DNA from: a virus
Strand: one strand, 5' to 3'
Virus record (IMG/VR): IMGVR_UViG_3300029908_000017
Span: 1 to 64,000 of that record
DNA length: 64,000 nucleotides
Shown here piece by piece: positions 15,397 to 34,507 of the stretch (the stretch's first letter is position 1; every line of letters starts with the position of its first letter). Under the pieces are notes generated by a model, which made no database searches, had not been told where the DNA came from, and was given only the letters and a program-made list of their open reading frames with translations. The position numbers and the translations under genes are program-made.

Positions 15397-16599
15397 TCAC
15401 AACGTTTTTGGCTCTGAAACTTTTTTCTTTCGTTTCTTTTTATTTTCATTCTCCACTTTTACTACTTCCTCATAAGATGGCAATGGAGGTACATGATAGG
15501 CTTCTCGAATCAATTCCTTGGCTTGTTCACTATTAGCAATAATTGTAGCCATATCTCTTACCAAGTAAGATTGTTCTATATTAATCACTTCTTCTTGTTG
15601 GGAGTTAGGATTAAGGAACTTAGTATTCGGAATATTCCAACGATAATAACCGCCTGCTTTGGTCATTAACTTTTCGTAGTTTTTCCCCAAATCTTCTACA
15701 CAAGATTCAAACCATGTATACCCTCCCTGTACTCTAGAGTCTACTTGAATAAATTGATTATTCCCCTCAATACCTAACTTATTTCGTTTACAAGTAATCT
15801 TATGGCTTGATCCTACTTTTATCTTAACCTTATCATGCTCTGGGTCTACTTCGAGAATATCTCCTGTTCGCGCAAACTTTAATTGGTAAGTAGAGTGGAA
15901 TCTAGGTGCCCTGCCACCAATCATGGCTTCAGGTTTTTCTTCACCAAATCCTCCAAACGAACCAATCTGCTCTCTTAACTGATTAATAGTTAATACAATA
16001 CACTTTTCATGCGATAAAGGATTAGTAATTTTCCGATAAAACTCTGATAATAGTTTTGCGTGATTACCAGGCTTTGTTTCACCAATAATATTTTGATCAG
16101 ACTCATACTCCGTCATCGTTCCTGCAATGGAATCCAGACAAATTAAAACAGGTGTTTCACCCTCCGGAAAAGCCTTTGGCAAATTAAGAATGATACCTTC
16201 AATCGATGTTAAAGCTTCTTCCAAAGTTTGAGGATGACTTAATTTTACTTCATCGATATTTAAGCCCTGCTGAAAAGCATAAACCTTGCTTGCTGCATTC
16301 TCTGTCTCTAACCAAAAAACAAGTCCTCCAGCTTTTTGGAACCGCTTTGCCATGTCATAGAAGAAGCTAGTTTTACCATCAGCTTTATTTCCATAAATAA
16401 GATAGCAACGACCATAAATCAAAAATCGACTAGATAATAGCTTTTCCAACAATGGACAATCCAGTAGCAATCCAGTTGGGTCTAATTCATCTTTTCCGTC
16501 AATAAACTCAGTCTCTGAGTCCTTAAAAGCTTTTTTAAAATCCTTTTGTACTAATGTTAATAGCTTATCAATCTGTTCTTTTTTCTTATCGTCGCTCAT
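15397..16599 (-). CDS. RecA/UvsX-like recombinase
   Basis: Walker A GNKADGKTS, ETE, LDSIA, INQLR, GGRA-x-x-FHS. Confidence 0.9.
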   Translation of the reverse strand: MSDDKKKEQIDKLLTLVQKDFKKAFKDSETEFIDGKDELDPTGLLLDCPLLEKLLSSRFLIYGRCYLIYGNKADGKTSFFYDMAKRFQKAGGLVFWLETENAASKVYAFQQGLNIDEVKLSHPQTLEEALTSIEGIILNLPKAFPEGETPVLICLDSIAGTMTEYESDQNIIGETKPGNHAKLLSEFYRKITNPLSHEKCIVLTINQLREQIGSFGGFGEEKPEAMIGGRAPRFHSTYQLKFARTGDILEVDPEHDKVKIKVGSSHKITCKRNKLGIEGNNQFIQVDSRVQGGYTWFESCVEDLGKNYEKLMTKAGGYYRWNIPNTKFLNPNSQQEEVINIEQSYLVRDMATIIANSEQAKELIREAYHVPPLPSYEEVVKVENENKKKRKKKVSEPKTL

Positions 16600-17938: not shown

Positions 17939-18220
17939 TTATTGATTGGCTTCAAAAAGATTCTGAAACCATATATATTTTGGGTTTATTTTTTTACGTA
18001 TGTTTAATGACTCAGCTACTTTAAAATAATTATCGTATTCAATACTTAATTTTTTTAGTGTTTTTAATTTTGGTGATTTTTTAACTTTTTCGAATGAAAC
18101 ACGGTTAATATCCCATTCTTCATAGTGTAAGTCAACCTTTGAGAAAATCTTTTTTAAAGTTTTATCCAACAAAGCTTCTACGGCTCTTACATTATGCTTT
18201 GATAGATTTTTTATGTTCAC
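17939..18220 (-). CDS. Hypothetical protein
   Basis: Coupled to the ThiF gene. Confidence 0.6.
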   Translation of the reverse strand: MNIKNLSKHNVRAVEALLDKTLKKIFSKVDLHYEEWDINRVSFEKVKKSPKLKTLKKLSIEYDNYFKVAESLNIRKKINPKYIWFQNLFEANQ

Positions 18221-18825
18221 AAATGAAAGACCTTTTCCTTCGTAACAAGATTTCCTCTTACGGCCTGTAAAAACACTTGAACCATTGCAGCACCCACAAT
18301 GACAGGCATAGCATGCGAAATATTATTTTGTTTTTCATAATCAAGCAGACAACTTCCTCGTTCTGTTGAATCATCCAAATAAGAATTTCGAATGTCTGCT
18401 GGTACCTTGGAGTTGAAAATCAATCCTAGATTGGAACTACTTCGTCCATCAATCCAAAATAACTCAGGATGACTATCACCATATTCATAAAGTTTTTTAC
18501 GAATTTCCATACCATCGGGACCACTAAGGATTACATCATAATTCTTGAAATCTTTCTTTTCCATGAACCTGTCAATTGCAGTAATGGCGTACTTGTCTTC
18601 CATCACTTTGACTTTCTTTTTACCGAGATCTTCGAATTTATAATTTTGGTGCAATAAATTCTTGTCCGTAACTGACGCTTCATCGAAAACTGTGATTTCA
18701 GTATTCAAATAATCGAATTGCTTGCGATTATAACCAAAGTCATAAAGAAAATGAATGACCCATCCTGAAACACCACCCGCCCCAATAATACCGATTCTTT
18801 TATAATTCAATTTTTCAATGCTCAT
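18217..18825 (-). CDS. ThiF/MoeB/E1-like adenylating enzyme
   Basis: IIGAGGVSG, D-x-x-x-V-x-x-KNL-x-x-Q, GKKKV, D-x-x-x-x-R, WIDGR, and a lone Cys in RGSC. Confidence 0.9.
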   Translation of the reverse strand: MSIEKLNYKRIGIIGAGGVSGWVIHFLYDFGYNRKQFDYLNTEITVFDEASVTDKNLLHQNYKFEDLGKKKVKVMEDKYAITAIDRFMEKKDFKNYDVILSGPDGMEIRKKLYEYGDSHPELFWIDGRSSSNLGLIFNSKVPADIRNSYLDDSTERGSCLLDYEKQNNISHAMPVIVGAAMVQVFLQAVRGNLVTKEKVFHL

Positions 18826-19270
18826 TTTTTCTCCAGATTACTTCACTTTGAATTGTATCGTTGTCTAACCAAGTATATTTAATTATTTCTCCGTACTTAA
18901 TACTCTTAATATAATTGTATTTAAAATTCTGAAATAAATTTGCATAGTCAATTCCAGAATACCTAGCAGAGAATGATGGGTGTGTATGGAATGAACCGAA
19001 TAATTGCCAACCTCTACTAAGAAATGGTCCTACTAATTTGGCGAATTCATTATCATTTGGCTCATATAAAGCGTGTCCAATACTTTGGTTATGAAACTTA
19101 TTAGGAATTCTCACAAAGGCAAACACGTCGTCATCGTCAACTTTACCTTTAACGAGTAGTCCACCTGCTTCGTATTCCAAATCATTAAAGTCCGTTAAAT
19201 TAATAATTGTTGTGTCAGGGCTGTCCCACACGTCCATAACATGAGGTAATTTGTTAAATTGTGAGATCAT
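18815..19270 (-). CDS. JAB/MPN+ metallo-isopeptidase
   Basis: EAGGLL plus complete H-x-H-x7-S-x2-D (HTHPSFSARYSGID). Confidence 0.9.
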   Translation of the reverse strand: MISQFNKLPHVMDVWDSPDTTIINLTDFNDLEYEAGGLLVKGKVDDDDVFAFVRIPNKFHNQSIGHALYEPNDNEFAKLVGPFLSRGWQLFGSFHTHPSFSARYSGIDYANLFQNFKYNYIKSIKYGEIIKYTWLDNDTIQSEVIWRKNEH

Positions 19271-19823
19271 GTATTATTGCAACGATGTTAGCATCAATAA
19301 AATCAGATTCAATATTGTTTGGTACTTTGATGTCGAAGTATTTTTCCAAATTTTCTAATAGAATATTTTTACCCAAATTATTAAAGCTGGTCTTATCGTT
19401 GAATAATACTTCTTCAAACTGAATTATTCTTTTCAACTGATATTTTATCGATAACAACTGTAGTCGAAGATTGTATTTATCAACATTATGCCAAATCAGT
19501 TTAGTAATATTGTGCTCATTTATTTTACTCAACAATTCTACATAAACACGTTCCTCATTATCATCAGTGATTGAAATGCGAGACCATGTAAGTAGTCCGG
19601 TTCTTTGATCAATAATTTTTACAAAGCCTTTTACACCCTTCAACTTGGTTGTAAATGTATGGTTGCCCACGTCGGCCAACCATTTTTCTTCTTTGTCTTT
19701 GATGTCTTTTTCTTTTTTAATTGGATCAGTAAGCCTACCATCGGCTTTAAAGTCAGGTATCCATTTTAACAATTCTTCCCCTTGAAGGGGAGTAAACTCT
19801 AATTTTATAGCAGCTATACTCAT
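19254..19823 (-). CDS. Hypothetical protein in Ubl cassette
   Basis: Overlaps the JAB start. Confidence 0.7.
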   Translation of the reverse strand: MSIAAIKLEFTPLQGEELLKWIPDFKADGRLTDPIKKEKDIKDKEEKWLADVGNHTFTTKLKGVKGFVKIIDQRTGLLTWSRISITDDNEERVYVELLSKINEHNITKLIWHNVDKYNLRLQLLSIKYQLKRIIQFEEVLFNDKTSFNNLGKNILLENLEKYFDIKVPNNIESDFIDANIVAIIHDLTI

Positions 19824-19825
19824 AA

Positions 19826-20032
19826 TTAATCTAATTCAGTTGTTTTTTCGTATCCTCGAAGAATTGCAGTCTGTACATAATAATCGTAAAATCTGACAGT
19901 CTGATCCTCATATAATTGGTCTGCCACATCTAATGCATCATCTTCATTTCGCCACGCTTCTTTGACTATAATTTCACCCTCACTATCTTCTTGCAGCACC
20001 AGATAAATATATGTTTCGTTATTTATACTCAT
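19826..20032 (-). CDS. Small acidic hypothetical protein
   Basis: ATGA-coupled to the 729-aa gene. Confidence 0.6.
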   Translation of the reverse strand: MSINNETYIYLVLQEDSEGEIIVKEAWRNEDDALDVADQLYEDQTVRFYDYYVQTAILRGYEKTTELD

Positions 20033-22218
20033 GCAACGGCTACCTCTTGAATTTCTGGAATATTAGCAACTTCTTGTGCGATATCTTTTAATTCTTGATC
20101 AAGATTATCATTGATAACCGGTTCATTTGTATCTTCTACATCAACAGTTTCAAAATCCTGGTCAATAGGAGTTTCTTTGACATAATGCTTTAGGGTATAA
20201 ATTTCGTCAACCAATACCGAGTCATTATGCAACGCATACAATCTAGCCGCGAGATCATCATAACCTACACCTGTATCATGGCTTGAATTGACAATGCAAA
20301 TATAACCCTGGCTAGCTTCGTCAAATACTTTGCAATTTTCTTTATTCACAATATAGGTTGTCAGCTTGCCTTTGATACGGTAAAACTCTTTACCATCTTT
20401 TTTGATCAACTCCGCGCCTGTAGCTTCTACAGCCATTTTTAAGAATTCTTTAGATTTCTCAACCGCTAATGCGTGCTTTAAGTCTAAATAATCAACAACC
20501 GCAATAAGATCAAAATCTGTCAAATGCTCGGTAACTACTTCTTTTTCGATTTCAACCCCATCAGCATTCTTTTCTTTAACAATCTTCTTAAAGGTAGACG
20601 CTTCTTTTAGAATTGGCTTTAATTTGCTTCTTGCCCATTTATCTGTTTTTGTCTCTCCGTTACACCAATTAGCATTTGCCGATTTATTTAAAGCATATAC
20701 TTTTTTGATTAAATAATTTAATCTAACAGGTACTGTCTTCTCGATATTATCAATAGAGTTAATAACAAGATGTGGCTTTCTATCCACAATTCTAAAGAAC
20801 AATTTAGTGCATTCAGGATGAGGTAAGGGATCTGCCCAACTACCAACATAATCCTTGTCAATTTTTACACCTAGTCCTGCACTAATTGCATCCGTGGCCT
20901 TTAAATTCAAGACTGAAGTTTGTTTAAGGAAATTTGTGTAATTCAACTCGTCTTGAAAACACGAACAACGATAAATAACTTCTTCTAACTCATTGGCATT
21001 GATACGAATACCATTGATCTTACGATGACCGCTTGCCAAGTGCTTAGTCAACGTTAATGTAATTCCATTAATCTTGAACGACTCCAATGTAATTACACCA
21101 TCCGTATACGCGGATTCGTCAGCAATTTCAAAAGTCTTAGGTACATTCACTTCTTCTTGGACCCTCGCGCTTCTCCTCCATCCATATCCGTACTTACGAA
21201 TTTTCTTAATCTGCCGTACTTCTTTCTTTAATCCCGCACTCTCAAGTTCAGCCGCTTTGGCTTTCGCAATTTCACGGACAACTGAATAGATATCAAATTG
21301 ATTATGAATATCATAAACACCCATAAATATTTCAAATAGCTTAGGATATTCGAGAGTAACAGTATGATAAACAGCCGAATTAGCTGTGAACTTAATATTG
21401 TTAAACTCACCAGATTCCACTTCACCAGACGCTAGTTTATTAGCATAGACTAATGTAGTATTAGCATTGTATTCTCCTTCAAGGACAGCTAACCGAGTTT
21501 TCCAAATAGTTTTCTGGTCTTTTGTCAGTCCCTTCTCCATCTTTAAGCGATACAATACACTCTTTTCAGGATTAATAAAGAATCCATGATCCAACATATC
21601 TACGAATCTTGAATTAAATCGTAGAAGATGAAAAACTAATAGAATTTCATAAGTAAAAACATTTGCAACGGCGTATTTACTAATCAATTTATTTTTCTCA
21701 TGATACTGGTATACCTGAAAAAGATTATATTGATCGAGATAATCATATACTTTGTCCATGTGTGAGGCCATGAACTTGATAAACCTTCGACCATTTACAA
21801 TACGATAAGTTGTACCATTTACAATTTTTTCGATAGGTGCCTGCATGATAACCAATGGCCCATCACTATCATCAACAGATTGTCGAGTGTAATATTTTGA
21901 ATTTGTGATCTTATCACGAATTGCTCCATAACTACTATCAGTTACTAACTCATAATTATCGTTGCAAAAAGAATCCTCAAAATCATTGTCAGGCCAATTT
22001 GAGGTACCGCGAATTGCTTGATAATTTAATTTAAACAACGAATGTAGCGTAGGTAAATTTTCTATATAAAAATCCTGTACTTTAAAATAGAAATTAATAT
22101 CCTTGTTCTGTTCTTCCCAAGCCAATTCAAAATCTATTTTAACCTTCTTTAACTTTAATAATAGATTTTTTAATTTTACCAAATATTGTTTATTTAACTG
22201 CGAGTGATAAAATGCCAT
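20029..22218 (-). CDS. Large protein of Ubl cassette; C-terminal GYICIV domain
   Basis: 729 aa; RIKGKLTTY...GYICIV...DDLAARLYALHND resembles the C-terminal domain seen after DUF4132. Confidence 0.6.
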   Translation of the reverse strand: MAFYHSQLNKQYLVKLKNLLLKLKKVKIDFELAWEEQNKDINFYFKVQDFYIENLPTLHSLFKLNYQAIRGTSNWPDNDFEDSFCNDNYELVTDSSYGAIRDKITNSKYYTRQSVDDSDGPLVIMQAPIEKIVNGTTYRIVNGRRFIKFMASHMDKVYDYLDQYNLFQVYQYHEKNKLISKYAVANVFTYEILLVFHLLRFNSRFVDMLDHGFFINPEKSVLYRLKMEKGLTKDQKTIWKTRLAVLEGEYNANTTLVYANKLASGEVESGEFNNIKFTANSAVYHTVTLEYPKLFEIFMGVYDIHNQFDIYSVVREIAKAKAAELESAGLKKEVRQIKKIRKYGYGWRRSARVQEEVNVPKTFEIADESAYTDGVITLESFKINGITLTLTKHLASGHRKINGIRINANELEEVIYRCSCFQDELNYTNFLKQTSVLNLKATDAISAGLGVKIDKDYVGSWADPLPHPECTKLFFRIVDRKPHLVINSIDNIEKTVPVRLNYLIKKVYALNKSANANWCNGETKTDKWARSKLKPILKEASTFKKIVKEKNADGVEIEKEVVTEHLTDFDLIAVVDYLDLKHALAVEKSKEFLKMAVEATGAELIKKDGKEFYRIKGKLTTYIVNKENCKVFDEASQGYICIVNSSHDTGVGYDDLAARLYALHNDSVLVDEIYTLKHYVKETPIDQDFETVDVEDTNEPVINDNLDQELKDIAQEVANIPEIQEVAVA

Positions 22219-22250
22219 AAAAAAGCCCGTTGGTGTTTAATCCAACGGGC
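22219..22250 (-). terminator. Intrinsic terminator between Ubl gene and 729-aa gene
   Basis: gcccgttgg-N8-ccaacgggc-tttttt directly followed by ATG. Confidence 0.8.
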
Positions 22251-22269
22251 ATCTCCGTTTATTGATTAA

Positions 22270-22623
22270 TTAACCACCGATGACTCGTCCAACGATTTGT
22301 ACAGGAGGAGTAATGAATTTACCTGGAAAGGCAATATCTACTTTTGTCAGAGAAGACAGCAAATCACGTAACCGTAACTTATCGCTTTCAATAATCTTGT
22401 TATCGTCATCCGTACCATTAAACTTAGCAGATGTCTTAAAGATTCCATCGTTAATCACAGCCCAAAGCTTGTTGGTCTGGAAATGACTAAAGATACGTTC
22501 AACGGCTCCTTCTAAGTTTAGTTTAAAAGTTTCATGTCCGGCTTTACCAGTAACATGCAAATCGTAAACAGGTGCGTTCAAATCTAAAGCTACTTCTGCA
22601 ATTGTATTTTTGATTTCTTCCAT
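22270..22623 (-). CDS. Ubiquitin-like (beta-grasp) protein with C-terminal GG
   Basis: Ends VQIVGRVIGG; beta-beta-alpha-beta pattern (VYDLHVT/ETFKL/AVERIFSHF/WAVIND); in an operon with E1 and JAB. Confidence 0.7.
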   Translation of the reverse strand: MEEIKNTIAEVALDLNAPVYDLHVTGKAGHETFKLNLEGAVERIFSHFQTNKLWAVINDGIFKTSAKFNGTDDDNKIIESDKLRLRDLLSSLTKVDIAFPGKFITPPVQIVGRVIGG

Positions 22624-22625
22624 AA

Positions 22626-23144
22626 TTAAACAGTTTGGGCTACCTCGTGATCTTCGTTGATAGCCAAAGAGAATCCAGACAAATCCTCGCTAGCGTTATT
22701 TAGATTCAATCTTGAATTAAACGTAATTTTTGCACCGGATTTCTGCAGAATCTTTACCAACGAGGCAAGAAAGAAACGAGGATGAGTAAGCTGCTTTACT
22801 CGTACTTCTGCCTTTACCTCGTAACCCTCGCTAATATTAACTACTAGCTCTTTGGGAGCTTCTACAGGTTGATTATCAACGACTACTTGAATTGGCTGTT
22901 TTGAATTTGCCTTTGTTTTAGTAGCAGTACCTTTCTTTGATTTTGCAGTTGTTGGTTTTGCAGTTGTAGTAGATTTAACAACATTCTTATCCGCTCCCTC
23001 TACTTCAAGGGTAGCCCAATTCTTGGAAATATTATTCGCATAAGTTGAGGAATAACCTTTCTTGATCAAATACGCAGACACACCTTTCTTCTGCCGCTTG
23101 ATCTTCAATAATTCGTCGTAAAGTGCTTTTTTAATTTTAGCCAT
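22626..23144 (-). CDS. Basic protein with Lys/Thr-rich linker
   Basis: N-terminal helical KKG-x-x-x-YL-x-x-x-GYS domain, then a K/T/A-rich tract. Confidence 0.7.
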   Translation of the reverse strand: MAKIKKALYDELLKIKRQKKGVSAYLIKKGYSSTYANNISKNWATLEVEGADKNVVKSTTTAKPTTAKSKKGTATKTKANSKQPIQVVVDNQPVEAPKELVVNISEGYEVKAEVRVKQLTHPRFFLASLVKILQKSGAKITFNSRLNLNNASEDLSGFSLAINEDHEVAQTV

Positions 23145-23150
23145 AATAGT

Positions 23151-23291
23151 TTAGTAAGTTTTCTTGTATGCTGCGAGTGTCTTTTCGATATTTTGCTGTG
23201 AATAACCCTGAAGAAGTAGATAAGACCGTAGACCCTTTTTTGCGAGACGTACTTTATCCAATTCTTTAACTAACGTTTTATTTATTTTCAT
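23151..23291 (-). CDS. 46-aa unannotated paralog of the N-terminus of 22626..23144
   Basis: MKINKTLVKELDKVRLAKKGLRSYLLLQGYSQQNIEKTLAAYKKTY aligns with MAKIKKALYDELLKIKRQKKGVSAYLIKKGYS. Confidence 0.75.
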   Translation of the reverse strand: MKINKTLVKELDKVRLAKKGLRSYLLLQGYSQQNIEKTLAAYKKTY

Positions 23292-23413
23292 ATGTTTATT
23301 TCTATTCTGTTACTACTACTGCCATGCACTTCAATCCCAAAAAGCTACCCAATAACAAAAGCGCAATTGCTGAAATTGTTTTTAGGGCTTTGATGGTTAT
23401 CAGTACATAATCT

Positions 23414-24352
23414 TTAAACTCCATCATATTCTTTAATTATTTTTTGTGAATAATCTTCTTTGTATTTGTTTATTATATTATTTATTTCTTCAGAATTTAC
23501 GATCTCGGGTGTATCAAAATCCTTGAAATACTTGTCTAACTCTTGTTTACTACCTATTTCTTCCAAGTTGTCCTGATCAACGATTATACATTTCACTGGG
23601 GAATCTGAATAAAGATATGAGACACATCCTCCAACCACTTCAATTATAATTGTAGGTATCTTATTGTTCATTATAGCAATCTTCTTGATAAGGTGTATCA
23701 GCCACTATCTCATATTCCCAATCTGGATTATTTTGATTGGCAACCCAATTTTCCAATGTTTCTAATGCTCCTGAATTGTCTTCTAAAAAACTAATTATCG
23801 CCCGTTCACCACTACAATCATCGGTATAACCAATCGTTTTTAATAGATCTTCGAACCTTACCAACCCAATCATTCCTTCATAACAAGGCCCAATATCATT
23901 AGCTTCTTTCCATCTTTGAATGACTTGTGGATTCATACTAAATGGGAGAGCGTCTCAGGGCTTACCCAAGTATAGCTATATGGGTCAGATGTATTCTCAG
24001 ATGACGTTATTTTAATAAGCATCTCCCTTGCGGAGGTTAGGCTTATTGCCAATATCTTAAATGTATTTGGAGATTTTCCCCAATGTACGATATCTCCAAC
24101 TTCAAAAGTACGTTTATTAATAGGTACAACTTCATAAATTGGTTCGGCAGGAGGAATCACCTTTACAAAATGAGTAGCTGCAAGAATGACAAAATTTGCA
24201 TTTGGAAATTTTTTAGCCAATCGTAAACCTTCAGTTTCTGCTTCTTCAAATGTAGAGTGACGAACACGAGGAAGTGTAACAACATCTTGAGGATTTGTTC
24301 GTGGTTGATACCTCATCACATACCAAAATTTATCGATTTTATCGACTTTCAT
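23414..24352 (-). CDS. Three coupled small hypothetical ORFs (23414..23671, 23661..23936, 23933..24352)
   Basis: Overlapping start/stop codons. Confidence 0.6.
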
Positions 24353-24354
24353 AA

Positions 24355-24939
24355 TTAAACACCAATAGGTATAAGAGGTACCGGAGCGAATTGATCAACT
24401 GCGTAAAGGTCATTCAATTGATTATCCGATAGCTTGGCAGGAGGAAGGTCTAAATGATTATTGATTTTCGCCACTGAAATTTCTTCAATTGGAGTAGTTA
24501 CTTCTTGTGGGGTTAAATCTTCATCAATAACCACTGTAATATTTTCGTCCTCCACTTTCCGGCTTACTACAGTCTTAGGATTTTTAATGTTCTTCAGACT
24601 ATTGAAAAGCCAAGAGATTTTATGCCCAACATTACGAAAATTATGCTGCTTGATTTCAGGCAACAATAATTCAATATCTTCATACCATGTTGAATCTTCG
24701 TCGTCATTACGAATTTCTGCCTGCCAATTGATCAGTTCATCTTCATCGGTGTTTGATATACTATTGGCAATCTTGATCGTTGTTTCTTCAAACAAATCAT
24801 TTAATGCCTGATAATAAAACTCTTCTGACCGACCTTCCGGACGACCTGCGTTTTCCCAATAGTAATAAGCTCGAACTTCTACTACTTGTGATTCAATTTC
24901 AATATATGTGTTCAAGGCAATGCCTTTTTCGATTTTCAT
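24355..24939 (-). CDS. DUF2934-domain protein (start revised to 24939)
   Basis: RAYYYWENAGRPEGRSEEFYYQA motif; ATGA overlap with 24936..25223. Confidence 0.7.
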   Translation of the reverse strand: MKIEKGIALNTYIEIESQVVEVRAYYYWENAGRPEGRSEEFYYQALNDLFEETTIKIANSISNTDEDELINWQAEIRNDDEDSTWYEDIELLLPEIKQHNFRNVGHKISWLFNSLKNIKNPKTVVSRKVEDENITVVIDEDLTPQEVTTPIEEISVAKINNHLDLPPAKLSDNQLNDLYAVDQFAPVPLIPIGV

Positions 24940-25201
24940 GTATTTTCTTTCTTTATGTTTGCTAACTCTTTTTCTAATGCGAGAATCTTGTCTTCTCGAC
25001 TCTTGTTGTACCAACTACCAATACTCTCTGCTTCTTTTAACTGGTCCTTCAGATCATCAATATCTTCAAGTTGTTCAAAGATATTTCCTGCTCCGATATG
25101 TGTAATACGCATACCGTGTGTGATCTTTTTATTCTTATGGGCTTTCCAAACCCAATCAGCCTTTGGTAAATCTTTCTTTTCCGGAATGACCGCTACAATG
25201 G

Positions 25202-25474
25202 TTATTGTTTTAGGGTAGGGCATATCTCAAATTCAAAAGGTTGAACTTTGACATCTTCACATTCCTCATCAAAACGTTCAATAAAAGTTGTTGCTTCATT
25301 AGGTAGTTGAATAATCTCTTTGATCTCCTCTTCTTTCATAAGAGTTATACAGAGTCTACCTACATATATACGATAATTCGGGAGTTCTCGGCTTGTTGCT
25401 AATGAAATAGGACAAAAATAACCTTTGTTAGGTCGCCCCAATTCAATATCTTGTTTAGTTACACGTATTTTCAT
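25202..25474 (-). CDS. Hypothetical protein, paralog of 1577..1840
   Basis: MKIRVTKQDIELG...CPISLA...PFEFEI. Confidence 0.7.
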   Translation of the reverse strand: MKIRVTKQDIELGRPNKGYFCPISLATSRELPNYRIYVGRLCITLMKEEEIKEIIQLPNEATTFIERFDEECEDVKVQPFEFEICPTLKQ

Positions 25475-26133
25475 AACATTGCGTAATCATGGTTACTAAC
25501 GTATGCATCAATAATACTCTCTGCTTCTTTGAAGACATAACCAAATTCATCATGTTGAGCGTGTTCAGGATAGAATCCATAACAAGAATCAATAATCTCA
25601 TCTTCTTCATTGTGTATTTCAAATCCACAAACATTACCCCGTAAATAATCATCGTAAATTTGAACTTCGTATTCTAATACCTCCAAAATTTGCTGCTTCA
25701 ATGATTTTCCGAAATTAACGGTTATTGCTTCCCAACCTTCTTCTTTATTAGTTACCGTAAATTCTTGTAGTGCCTTTTCCAATGTACAGTAAATGAATCC
25801 AACTTGCCCACTATCCCAAGGACAAGAAAAACCACATGTATTAATAGACAAACCGGAATGATCCATCAAATACAATGGTAATATAACAATATTTTCTTTA
25901 AGTATTGTTTCGGCTTTCTCAGTTGGTGTTTCTTCGTCAATATCACATAGGTTGTAGAAGTATTCTTGAAAACTTGAATTCTTTAATTGCTCATCCCCTA
26001 AATTATAATTACGATGACTGCATACCATTTTACCAAGATTACACCAATCTCTAGGAGATTCTGGGCAATCATCACTCACCAATTTAATTTTATAATCTTT
26101 ATAATCTCTTTCTTCAACCACGTAATTATTCAT
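25471..26133 (-). CDS. Conserved phage/mobile-element protein
   Basis: PLYLMDHSGLSI, WDSGQVGFIY and DSCYGFY motifs. Confidence 0.65.
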   Translation of the reverse strand: MNNYVVEERDYKDYKIKLVSDDCPESPRDWCNLGKMVCSHRNYNLGDEQLKNSSFQEYFYNLCDIDEETPTEKAETILKENIVILPLYLMDHSGLSINTCGFSCPWDSGQVGFIYCTLEKALQEFTVTNKEEGWEAITVNFGKSLKQQILEVLEYEVQIYDDYLRGNVCGFEIHNEEDEIIDSCYGFYPEHAQHDEFGYVFKEAESIIDAYVSNHDYAML

Positions 26134-26490
26134 TTAATTTTTGGATTAATCTCTTAAGTCCTGCTATAAACTTATCCGCCACATAGGCAGAAATACATCT
26201 ACCCTGAATATGATAACTTGTAGCATGGTGTTTCACCAGATCACCTCGATAATCATCGCCTTTGTGATGATCTTGTTCAACTTTATAAGTGTTACACAAC
26301 ACACCTGTTAATACACAATATTCAGATTTATCTGTATCGTCTTTATGTTGATAAGGTAATAACTGTACAAACTCTTCATTAAGCTTAGCTTCTTCAACAG
26401 CAATTTTTTTATTTTGTTCATATTCAATCGCTTCTGCCTCTGTATCGAATAATGAATCATCGAATGTCTTATATTTTTTTATTTCTGTAA

Positions 26491-26916
26491 TCATACATCT
26501 TCTATGAAAAATGATTTAATATCTTTACGGTTCGGTGACCATTGCCAATATATGTCAGCTTCATCGAAGATTTTTTCTACAGTACCTTCGTTGTCTTGTA
26601 TACCATGATACCTAAAGTTAAAAGAAGATTGACATAAAACTAAGTTCCAAGTTTCAGCTGCATAATTTCTAAACCACCAAACAGATGGAAATTCATCACT
26701 CCACATTGTCCGACACTTTGGTTTTGGTTTAATTCGGTATATATGATTTTCAAAATCCCAAATACCACTCTTTACTTCATACCAGTTGGACGCTCGTGTT
26801 ATATCTTCAATTTTCCAATGGGCTTCAATTGACTTTCCATCTTCAAAAGCTTGTATCACTTCTATTATTTCTTTGTTTGTCATATTTTTTATATTTAGGT
26901 AAATCTGGCCATGCAT
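26491..26916 (-). CDS. Hypothetical protein, paralog of 50023..50436
   Basis: IEV-x-QA-x-x-DGK-x-IE...W-x-x-x-x-x-x-YRIK...WSP. Confidence 0.7.
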   Translation of the reverse strand: MHGQIYLNIKNMTNKEIIEVIQAFEDGKSIEAHWKIEDITRASNWYEVKSGIWDFENHIYRIKPKPKCRTMWSDEFPSVWWFRNYAAETWNLVLCQSSFNFRYHGIQDNEGTVEKIFDEADIYWQWSPNRKDIKSFFIEDV

Positions 26917-27100
26917 CTACTAGATCATCGAACCGATAACCATCATCGATATTTAGTTCAAAGATTTTTGAAAAATCATTAACATTGAATTTTCGTAATT
27001 TTTCGTAGCGATGATATCCAATGTATAGATCTGCTACATAGTGGTCATCTCCATATGTATCTCTGACCATCAAAGATGATGTAAGGGTTTTCATAGAAAC

Positions 27101-27277
27101 TTACTCCGTGTCATGCCATTCCTTACCTCTCGATTCGTCGAGTCCCTGGATGTAGCCCTTGTTGTTTGCCCACTGTTGAAGCTTGTCGAGAATGGCTATG
27201 GCTTTCGGCATGTCGCCAAGGTACAAAGCCGTGGAAACCTCTTGAGCAATCGTCGCAAGTTGTTCCTTGTCCTTCAT
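27101..27277 (-). CDS. 58-aa unannotated ORF with elevated GC
   Basis: MKDKEQLATIAQEVSTALYLGDMPKAIAILDKLQQWANNKGYIQGLDESRGKEWHDTE; many G/C-ending codons. Confidence 0.65.
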   Translation of the reverse strand: MKDKEQLATIAQEVSTALYLGDMPKAIAILDKLQQWANNKGYIQGLDESRGKEWHDTE

Positions 27278-27936
27278 TGGTGATGATCCCCGTTTAATAT
27301 TGTGATTGTGTGCATTATTATACTCCTTTGCTATATCTCTTTAATGTTTCGAAAGAAACGATTTTGAATGGTCTGGAAAATAAGAAATTTGCATATCTCT
27401 CGGACTGTTCATCAGGTACATAATTTTTATTTCTAACGAGTTTTAAAACTATATCTTTTTCAGGTACCATGTATTCCATTTTGTAAATTATACTTTCTGT
27501 TTATGATGGTTTTTAAGCTATTCAGAAACTTTAGTTTGTGTATTGATAGGCTCTACTGCCTCTAGTTTATCTTCGTACCAATCCATATTGTATATAGTAA
27601 AAGGAAAGTCATGATCAATTATTCCTTCTTCTAACAACGTTTGCGCTTTGTCGTAAGCTGATTCTCCTGAATCTACTTCAACCTCAAACTCTATAACTTG
27701 CTCCCAACGCCTAGTTACAATTGCCTTGTATTTCATGTGATTACTATCGAGTTATATTTATTGTTACCTCACCAGTAGTATCATTAACATGACAATATTC
27801 TCCGTATAACAACAACAGGTAATGTGCATAACTATTATTATAAAGTATTTTTTCTACTTGGTCGTAAGGTAAGTTAAATTCAATTTTACCTTTGTTATTT
27901 ATATGTACATTTGAACTTCGTACAAGATATTCCATG

Positions 27937-33288: not shown

Positions 33289-33836
33289 AATCTTGATAAG
33301 TCGAACTTTTTTTCTTTAAGAAAATGTAACAACGCTTCATCGATTGGAAATACCTTTGACTTATATTTATCGATTACTTCTTGTACAGGTTCTTTGGTGA
33401 TTAGAATACGAAACCAATTTTTCAGATTTACATAATCCTTCATTAACGCCTGTTCAACTGTAAGGCCAGATTGTATCAGATTACGTAGATAGGATAATTG
33501 TGTTTGGTATAAATCTTCGTAAGCAATGGGTGTTTCATTAATGCAATTCTTTTGTACATATTCTCTATATTTACTCTCTGCATATTGGGTATGAAGAAAT
33601 GAAGATTGAAAATGATCAATGTTCTTAATATTATTAAACTGAGCTTTGACGAACAATACAGGATCAGCATCAATACGGTAGCAAATTTCTGCCGCTTTTT
33701 CAAACGCAGTAATATCTTTACTACCGTATTTATACCAGGGTAATAACTTTCTGGCTTCTTCCTTAAAAGATTCGGCAATACTTTCTTTTAATCCATTAAA
33801 AACATGAATATCCATTATTGCGGAATAGTTGGACAA
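33282..33836 (-). CDS. Hypothetical protein, possible helicase loader
   Basis: Helical protein between primase and helicase; context only. Confidence 0.35.
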   Translation of the reverse strand: MSNYSAIMDIHVFNGLKESIAESFKEEARKLLPWYKYGSKDITAFEKAAEICYRIDADPVLFVKAQFNNIKNIDHFQSSFLHTQYAESKYREYVQKNCINETPIAYEDLYQTQLSYLRNLIQSGLTVEQALMKDYVNLKNWFRILITKEPVQEVIDKYKSKVFPIDEALLHFLKEKKFDLSRLC

Positions 33837-34507
33837 TCTGAATAATTAGGATTATGAATTAGTGGATTTACCTCACCAAAAGATAATTCTGCTTTAGTTA
33901 CAACCGGTACTGTATAAAACTCGTAATTTGTATCTAGCTTAACAATCATGTTATGTCCAATTGCTTGATCAGGTTGTTTATCAAAACTTCTTTGATAAAT
34001 AATATGGTCTTTCTTATCATCAGGTAGCTTATCCCTTAATACACTATCCCATATAAATATGTCATTATGTTCATATTTTTTACCATCAATAAAATAACTA
34101 AATTTGCTTTCATGTTTAGTTTCAATAACTTCCAAATTTTCTTTCTTTACTACTTCTTCAAAAGTAATAGGGTCTAGTATCTTTGGAACCGAAGACTGTT
34201 CAATAATCGGTTCATCCACAACCTTCGCTACTTGCCCTTCTTTGATATCTGAAGCTGCGATATATATGATTGTATTATTCGATGAACAATTTTTCAGTTC
34301 ATTCAACAATCGGTTATTTTCTTTGATAAGTTCATAAATAATAATACTTAGTTCAATTCCAGTAAGCCCTTTTTGTTTTACCAGGTTTTTAGCATTCCGG
34401 TAAATGAAATGATTATTAACGGCCCATTTATGGAAGTTATCTAGGTCATCATAAATTTCATAATCTGGTTTGTCTAGATTGATACTTGGAAATTCTGGTT
34501 CGTTCAT
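33815..34507 (-). CDS. Hypothetical protein
   Basis: ATGA-coupled to primase. Confidence 0.65.
   Translation of the reverse strand: MNEPEFPSINLDKPDYEIYDDLDNFHKWAVNNHFIYRNAKNLVKQKGLTGIELSIIIYELIKENNRLLNELKNCSSNNTIIYIAASDIKEGQVAKVVDEPIIEQSSVPKILDPITFEEVVKKENLEVIETKHESKFSYFIDGKKYEHNDIFIWDSVLRDKLPDDKKDHIIYQRSFDKQPDQAIGHNMIVKLDTNYEFYTVPVVTKAELSFGEVNPLIHNPNYSDCPTIPQ

Follow-up and report, generated by a model that had tools for sequence, protein, structure and literature searches.

The DNA analyzed here comprises positions 1 to 64,000 of IMG/VR virus record IMGVR_UViG_3300029908_000017 (hereafter the window), i.e., the first 64 kb of a 74-kb record from an uncultured, large phage of peat soil. Because CheckV puts the completeness of this record at 36%, the genome of the source phage is probably about 200 kb in size. 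The minus strand of the window carries a cassette with genes for a small candidate ubiquitin-like protein (Ubl), a protein of 729 amino acids (aa) designated g729, a JAB/JAMM metallopeptidase (JAB) and a minimal ThiF-type activating enzyme (E1). The cassette is shared with all of the roughly 27 known relatives of the phage. Near-identical DNA is contained in peat metagenome runs from at least six further studies, which may represent one sampling campaign because they share the same year and the same habitat. Here we present a description of the cassette and its distribution, together with an assessment of the proposal, made in a first-pass annotation of the window from its letters alone, that the phage carries a protein-modification system of its own.

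The six minus-strand open reading frames (ORFs) on which that proposal was built, among them the 117-aa product ending in VQIVGRVIGG, were reproduced in the ORF list with the same coordinates and sizes. They are summarized in Table 1 together with the neighboring features.

Table 1. Features of the cassette and its surroundings (positions in the window)
Feature	Position	Strand	Basis or remark
Ubl, 117 aa	22270-22623	-	ends VQIVGRVIGG, then stop; already mature in the window phage
g729, 729 aa, multidomain, phage-only family	20029-22218	-	family alignments; always between the Ubl and JAB genes
UBC/UEV/RWD-like C-terminal domain of g729 (residues 577-672)	20203-20490	-	predicted structure, fold matches
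JAB/JAMM metallopeptidase, 151 aa	18815-19270	-	Pfam Prok-JAB; intact E...HxHx7Sx2D
Minimal E1, 202 aa, single ThiF-type adenylation domain	18217-18825	-	Pfam ThiF
Terminator-like hairpin	22219-22250	-	9 bp, 7 G-C pairs, plus U-tract
g68, 68 aa	19826-20032	-	no tblastn match in any related locus
g189, 189 aa	19254-19823	-	degenerate DnaQ-like 3'-5' exonuclease relative
g93	17939-18220	-	conserved downstream neighbor
g362, 362 aa	16843-17931	-	conserved downstream neighbor
RecA/UvsX-like recombinase	15397-16599	-	Pfam RecA 8e-27; PHROG UvsX-like 4e-37

Components of the cassette

The terminal Gly-Gly of the Ubl is invariant in a 28-sequence alignment of the family (mean identity 24%), in which G29 is the only other invariant column. 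Between 0 and about 80 unconserved residues follow the Gly-Gly. At all 25 loci with upstream sequence, a small ORF (83-156 aa) just upstream of the g729 homolog ends in ...LLTGxLVGG, followed by nothing or by 1-11 unconserved residues; the two closest homologs of the window protein terminate in GGRS and GGNS. Distant homologs (P0011, P0012, P0013; L029:1935-2462) are about 200 aa long, have an internal Gly-Gly with 60-80 residues after it and may be Ubl-fusion precursors. A Gly-Gly with variable, unconserved tails is the pattern of a processed Ubl precursor. Two other explanations of the double glycine were rejected: a double-glycine bacteriocin leader, since nothing follows the Gly-Gly in several members, and MccB-type peptide modification, for which a C-terminal Asn is required.

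The Ubl family is hard to reach by sequence comparison. Word-indexed and exhaustive HMMER searches recovered only a handful of relatives, an alignment of the distant members found nothing in IMG/VR, and a metagenome scan for these members yielded one 2.4-kb contig without useful context. The Ubl had no match in Pfam, NCBIfam, PHROGs or PADLOC nor in a PDB profile search; Pfam ubiquitin (PF00240) is not among the matched families listed for it, and the family did not match the ThiS/MoaD Pfam model. The only structure model available is of low confidence (predicted local distance difference test, pLDDT, of 59) and has the order ββαββαβ, which is that of the beta-grasp fold; its fold matches are almost all ubiquitin-fold domains, each of them weak. 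The ESM Atlas returned no feature matches for the Ubl or for g729, its own models being poor. Conservation of the Gly-Gly and a beta-grasp fold of the 117-aa product, both put forward for checking by the first-pass annotation, thus came out as an invariant feature and as a low-confidence prediction, respectively.

The E1 scores 36.9 bits against Pfam ThiF (cut-off 28.1), and its relatives (196-220 aa) reach 60-72 bits over nearly the whole model. The best PDB profile match of the family is the adenylation domain of UBA3, the catalytic subunit of the NEDD8 E1 (E 7e-4), and the closest NCBIfam matches are ThiF models, far below their cut-offs. Invariant in 25 sequences are the GAGG loop (GAGGxSG in the window protein), D48, K71, the Mg-binding D104, FW-DGR and Cys159; a 9-residue insert behind this loop (NRKQFDY) is likewise invariant in the family. 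The sole cysteine of the window protein (RGSC; 18349-18351) is the family-invariant Cys159, and a CxxC pair is absent; the nucleotide-binding loop, the lone cysteine and the lack of CxxC sites had all been read correctly at the outset. In one relative (L007:12824-14598) an insert of about 1.17 kb interrupts the E1 gene exactly at the ATP-binding motif (…DDDTV / DVKNLLHQN…) and contains the coding sequence of a LAGLIDADG endonuclease of 323 aa (Pfam LAGLIDADG_3, 4e-7); the reading frame differs between the two exons, and no group I intron was detected in the insert with Rfam.

The JAB scores 31.5 bits (1.7e-7) against Pfam Prok-JAB (cut-off 25). Its motif, E...HTHPSFSARYSGID, fits HxHx7Sx2D and is invariant in 26 sequences, in agreement with the intact peptidase that had been described. 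A profile match to AfJAMM was obtained at 1e-3, and the match to the JAB models of PADLOC (CBASS Cap3-type) was weak (3.5e-5). Each near-complete relative has one ThiF gene and one JAB gene. In the window and in the related loci L002, L014 and L015 the Ubl gene stops right after the Gly-Gly, yet the JAB has remained intact, which suggests that the peptidase does more than trim a precursor.

No significant family match was found for g729 in Pfam, NCBIfam, PHROGs or PADLOC, and no PDB profile match. An AlphaFold2 model built from 23 sequences has a pLDDT of 76. Foldseek found no match to it in the PDB; comparison with BFVD gave three unnamed viral proteins (E about 1e-7), and VIA-align against 48,161 chains gave weak matches only. 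Regarding the 19 VIA-align rows that cover residues 579-677, at least ten are E2 (conjugating enzyme), UEV or RWD domains. The predicted order of elements in this C-terminal domain (helix, four-strand meander, loop, two helices) is the order of the UBC core, and the loop after the meander holds the invariant motif Y-x-C641-I-V-N-x-x-H647-x-x-G-x-G-Y-D-D. The domain makes up the last approximately 100 structured residues of g729, with an acidic tail behind it. Two cysteines are invariant in the family, C641 (20296-20298) and C420 (20959-20961), the latter in an R-x-S-C motif where a helix of the central part of the protein ends; His647, six residues past Cys641, is invariant as well. Used as a query, the C-terminal region recovered one further close relative only.

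Judging from the predicted structure, g729 probably supplies the E2 of the cassette, a function absent from the first-pass annotation; it is a candidate E2, or a candidate E2/E3-like carrier (E3: ligase) that also selects the substrate. It is the only E2 candidate, because Prok-E2_A and Prok-E2_B matched nothing in the window record and nothing in five near-complete relatives (a UQ_con search was also without match, but the control genomes were silent too, so that this search was uninformative). At the Cys-containing region all 23 members of the g729 family match DUF7737 (PF24879) with 13.3-16.8 bits (best E 0.0023), below the Pfam gathering threshold of 27 bits in every case, and the two ESM Atlas structure clusters nearest to g729 consist of proteins with DUF4132 and DUF7737, at a template modeling score (TM-score) of only 0.27. 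The C-terminal region is probably a distant relative of DUF7737, a domain for which no paper mentioning it was found in the literature.

These observations bear on the possibility that the cassette works without an E2, the small E1 alone activating and transferring the Ubl and g729 serving as principal substrate or as scaffold, or having an unrelated role in replication. We consider this unlikely: Cys641 and His647 are invariant and lie where the active site of an E2 would be expected, after a four-strand meander; the gene is always found between those of the Ubl and the JAB; and the fold matches over its C-terminal domain are enriched in E2, UEV and RWD domains.

A different function would be that of a sulfur carrier: the JAB would free the Gly-Gly, the E1 would thiocarboxylate the Ubl, and the sulfur would be accepted by a metabolite, by a tRNA or by a modified base in DNA. 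A JAB unmasks the Gly-Gly of a sulfur carrier in the QbsE/QbsD and CysO/Mec+ systems, such pathways too combine a masked Gly-Gly, a JAB and a small ThiF-type E1, and the NCBIfam models closest to the E1 of the cassette are, albeit far below their cut-offs, those of ThiF. However, the Ubl family does not match ThiS/MoaD, the E1 has neither a rhodanese domain nor a CxxC pair, and an always-linked g729 with an invariant cysteine would be left unexplained. Moreover, ThiS, ThiG, MoaE, rhodanese, PP-loop ATPase (TtuA/TilS-type) and cysteine desulfurase were found neither in the window record nor in five relatives of 93-100% completeness, the control genomes being positive; for ThiG, MoaE and rhodanese, which the first-pass annotation had noted as missing nearby, the absence extends to these genomes. 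Because host enzymes could be used in place of phage-encoded ones, their absence only weakens the sulfur-carrier explanation, which we nevertheless regard as decidedly improbable.

Layout, distribution and selection

From g729 through g362, neighboring genes overlap (g68/g729 by 4 nt, JAB/g189 by 17 nt, E1/JAB by 11 nt, g93/E1 by 4 nt) or sit 2-7 nt apart, and for this reason the run looks translationally coupled. A hairpin with a U-tract lies in the 51-nt gap between the stop codon of the Ubl gene and the ATG of g729; 17 of 19 relatives have a GC-rich hairpin of 11-15 bp with a U-tract in this gap, unrelated in sequence. We infer that the hairpin is a terminator or attenuator by which Ubl mRNA would outnumber enzyme mRNA. 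A sigma-70 promoter scan gave a chance-level result (35 found, 36 expected), and no promoter is named here for that reason; Rfam reported nothing between 14 and 28 kb of the window.

A scan of IMG/VR with the single g729 sequence gave no match, so that an alignment-based scan was needed; seeded with the g729 alignment, it returned 26 contigs, which range in size from 25 to 204 kb and of which one has terminal repeats. Scans seeded with g362 or with the E1 recovered the same contigs, the g362 scan adding three short ones, of which one was also in the E1 scan. Because the three scans return the same contigs, the cassette is a clade-wide core feature of phages of 180-200 kb and not a variable accessory island. 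According to tblastn, the order g729, [exonuclease], JAB, E1, [g93], g362, RecA is kept in every contig reaching far enough, and likewise all four core genes, with the Ubl gene in front, are present in the same order. Primase, helicase and PolA genes precede the cassette within a replication module of collinear layout, in which it has the polymerase gene on one side and the recombinase gene on the other.

Purifying selection was seen for each of the four core genes, with ratios of nonsynonymous to synonymous substitution rates (dN/dS) of about 0.03-0.26 where dS was estimable, many sequence pairs being saturated (E1 about 0.03; g729, JAB and Ubl about 0.08-0.26). Outside the clade, no relative of the E1 or g729 families was found among 185,579 species genomes in two scans of genome contigs. 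Among 50,697 GenBank phage records neither the region nor g729 had a match, and the E1 had a weak match only, to the ThiF of Acinetobacter phage ME3.

The distribution speaks to a third alternative, namely that the genes serve counter-defense, either with the JAB stripping Bil- or CBASS-type conjugates of the host or with Ubl and E1 as decoys that jam Ubl-based immunity, and carry out no productive conjugation themselves. Ubl systems known from bacteria protect against phages, and the weak match of the JAB to Cap3-type models would agree with this idea. A stripping enzyme, however, needs no private Gly-Gly Ubl, no Cys-bearing E1 and no linked g729; purifying selection acts on all four genes in every relative; and the cassette is a clade-wide core of the replication module rather than part of an accessory island. 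Counter-defense as the sole function therefore appears to us very improbable.

Proposed mechanism and comparison with known systems

We consider it moderately probable that the four core genes (Ubl, large E2-like protein, JAB and E1, arranged in this order) encode a phage-borne system for conjugation of the Ubl to proteins. The protein-modification system proposed in the first-pass annotation is supported, at the level of sequence, by the conserved Gly-Gly, the retained catalytic residues of E1 and JAB, the linkage of the genes and the lack of sulfur partners.

Several points weigh against conjugation. Throughout the E1 family, an invariant His (NLLHQN, residue 59) replaces the canonical Arg of the nucleotide-binding motif NLxRQ, which is conserved in ThiF, MoeB and eukaryotic E1s, and the enzyme has no Cys domain of the kind that forms a separate unit in the E1s of Bil and of eukaryotes. 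The hairpin behind the Ubl gene could be a sign that the Ubl belongs to a separate transcription unit. Finally, all examples come from one collinear phage clade, no independent genomic context having been found; the conserved synteny may reflect shared descent rather than functional linkage, and because of this restriction to a single clade it is not independent evidence for a joint function.

If conjugation takes place, the Ubl would be produced in excess as a consequence of the putative terminator or attenuator directly behind its gene, and in most relatives the JAB would trim the Ubl precursor to expose the Gly-Gly. The compact ThiF-type E1 would then, as its homology and conservation suggest, adenylate the C-terminus of the Ubl and bind it as a thioester at Cys159. 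The Ubl would be handed to Cys641 in the UBC-like domain of g729, while the approximately 570 residues that precede this domain would choose the substrate, as proposed for the E3-less Bil E2s. In the last step the Ubl would be joined to lysines of phage or host proteins in the replication phase, and the JAB could also remove it again. A more far-reaching version, which we put forward tentatively and hold to be somewhat less likely than not, is that a lytic phage lineage runs a complete Ubl cascade of its own as core replication-phase equipment, with a giant E2/E3-hybrid carrier (C420, C641), and tags host or phage proteins with it. On that version the cassette would be an offensive system on the side of the virus that mirrors bacterial Bil immunity, and the prokaryotic analog of the way in which eukaryotic viruses exploit ubiquitin.

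The best reading of the cassette is one with Bil-like gene order, new families and a minimal E1. The Bil order bilA-bilB-bilC-bilD corresponds to Ubl, E2, JAB and E1 (PMC11601596), so that, with g729 as candidate E2, the four activities come in the same order in both; neither has an E3, and the BilA Ubl, too, ends in Gly. In contrast, Bil is found in bacterial defense gene islands and the cassette in a phage replication module; the E1 is a 202-aa single adenylation domain instead of IAD-AAD-CYS; the E2-like domain ends a 729-aa protein, whereas the Bil E2 stands alone; and no component of the cassette matches the Prok-E2 or ThiS/MoaD Pfam models.

Type II CBASS and PRTRC, which had been offered as frames, do not accommodate the cassette. 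With CBASS it shares the E1/E2/JAB logic and weak PADLOC matches (E1 to Cap2, 1e-4; JAB to Cap3, as given above); Cap2, however, is an E1-E2 fusion, whereas E1 and E2-like protein are separate here and a dedicated Ubl gene is present. Furthermore, the 'Ubl' of CBASS is the C-terminus of the CD-NTase, and among eight cassette proteins there was no match to a CD-NTase model and no effector. PRTRC cassettes, too, are carried by mobile elements and include a JAB-like protein together with a member of the ThiF family, but the E1 reaches 24.7 bits against a cut-off of 144.75 (TIGR03736), and no PRTRC A-F or ParB model matches the cassette proteins. A different phage-borne pairing of E1-like and JAB-like proteins is present in the cultured jumbo phage Acinetobacter phage vB_AbaM_ME3 (L028, KU935715.1 135964-140101), where an annotated ThiF (350 aa) and a 'PRTRC system protein A' lie about 3 kb apart.

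The archaeal SAMP/UbaA/HvJAMM1 and Thermus TtuB/TtuC systems work without an E2 and double as sulfur carriers. They resemble the cassette in their small Gly-Gly beta-grasp modifier, compact MoeB/ThiF-type E1 and JAMM peptidase; the cassette differs from them in its constant linkage to a predicted UBC-like domain with a cysteine and in its lack of genes for sulfur-relay partners. Bub (6E/DUF6527) also has Ubl, E2, JAB and E1, and its JAB cuts the Ubl precursor. Its E1 and E2 lack catalytic cysteines and use oxyester chemistry, and the operons encode a DUF6527 serine protease, whereas the candidate catalytic cysteines of the cassette (Cys159 in the E1, Cys641 in g729) do not vary and the Pfam scan of the cassette proteins was without DUF6527. 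The bacterial DUF4132/DUF7737 proteins (PF13569, PF24879) share with g729 the sub-threshold DUF7737 match at its Cys region, and are set apart by a score below the Pfam cut-off and by the low Atlas TM-score.

The E2 of operon type 6d is without the classical His but has an absolutely conserved His C-terminal to the Cys (Iyer et al. 2006); the arrangement of Cys641 and His647 in g729 is similar, i.e., a cysteine with a downstream His and no upstream HPN. The same survey reported the tail-assembly proteins I (Ubl) and K (JAB plus NlpC/P60) of phages lambda and T1 (Iyer et al. 2006), which resemble the cassette as a phage pairing of Ubl and JAB; they belong to the tail module and have no E1 or E2, whereas the cassette includes an E1 and belongs to the replication module. 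A literature search found no description of a phage cassette of Ubl, E1, JAB and E2-like protein; related reports concern the tail-module Ubl and JAB pairs (Iyer et al. 2006), E1-like genes of Asgard viruses and the PRTRC-like annotations of ME3.

Characterized Ubl conjugation in bacteria is anti-phage defense only (CBASS Cap2/Cap3, Bil, Bub). The cassette has the same logic on the side of the phage, conserved throughout a clade within the replication and recombination module and absent from the cellular genomes searched. If conjugation does occur, phages would be tagging proteins either to regulate phage replication or to gain control of the host, and an exchange of Ubl systems between viruses and cells would be conceivable. 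The cassette also brings an E1 of very small size (about 200 aa, with His for Arg) and a predicted new E2-like domain, which may explain the bacterial DUF7737, and the four proteins are small or modular enough for direct biochemistry.

Neighboring genes

Two ORFs between g729 and JAB had been listed without a function. One, g189, is a degenerate copy of a DnaQ-like exonuclease that nine relatives have in this interval (e.g., L002:11710-12360; Pfam DNA_pol_B_exo1, 1.4e-8, and RNase_H_2); it retains the N-terminal 60 residues and has lost the catalytic motifs DIET and FNGxxFD, and for this reason it is not part of the Ubl system. The other, g68, still matches no family (like g172, it had no match in Pfam, NCBIfam, PHROGs or PADLOC) and is probably a lineage-specific filler gene.

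Of the two neighbors named SSB (single-stranded DNA-binding protein) and RecA in the first-pass annotation, the recombinase was recovered by both Pfam and PHROGs (Table 1). The name SSB could not be verified for g362, which had no family match in Pfam, NCBIfam, PHROGs or PADLOC and no PDB profile match. It adjoins the UvsX-like recombinase in every relative, has a Pro/Ala-rich linker and a conserved C-terminal tail, and may be the single-stranded DNA-binding protein of the clade. A 230-aa ORF in the primase-helicase interval (window 33815-34507), considered as a second ubiquitin-fold domain, had no Pfam match (E up to 0.1).

The stretch between PolA and the Ubl gene differs in content between the window and the relatives and is thus a variable slot beside the conserved cassette. 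In the window (22626-27936) it spans about 5 kb with some 15 small unrelated ORFs; in the relatives (e.g., L002:7270-9237) it is about 2 kb in size and holds a GP88-family protein (Pfam, 2.9e-30) and one other gene.

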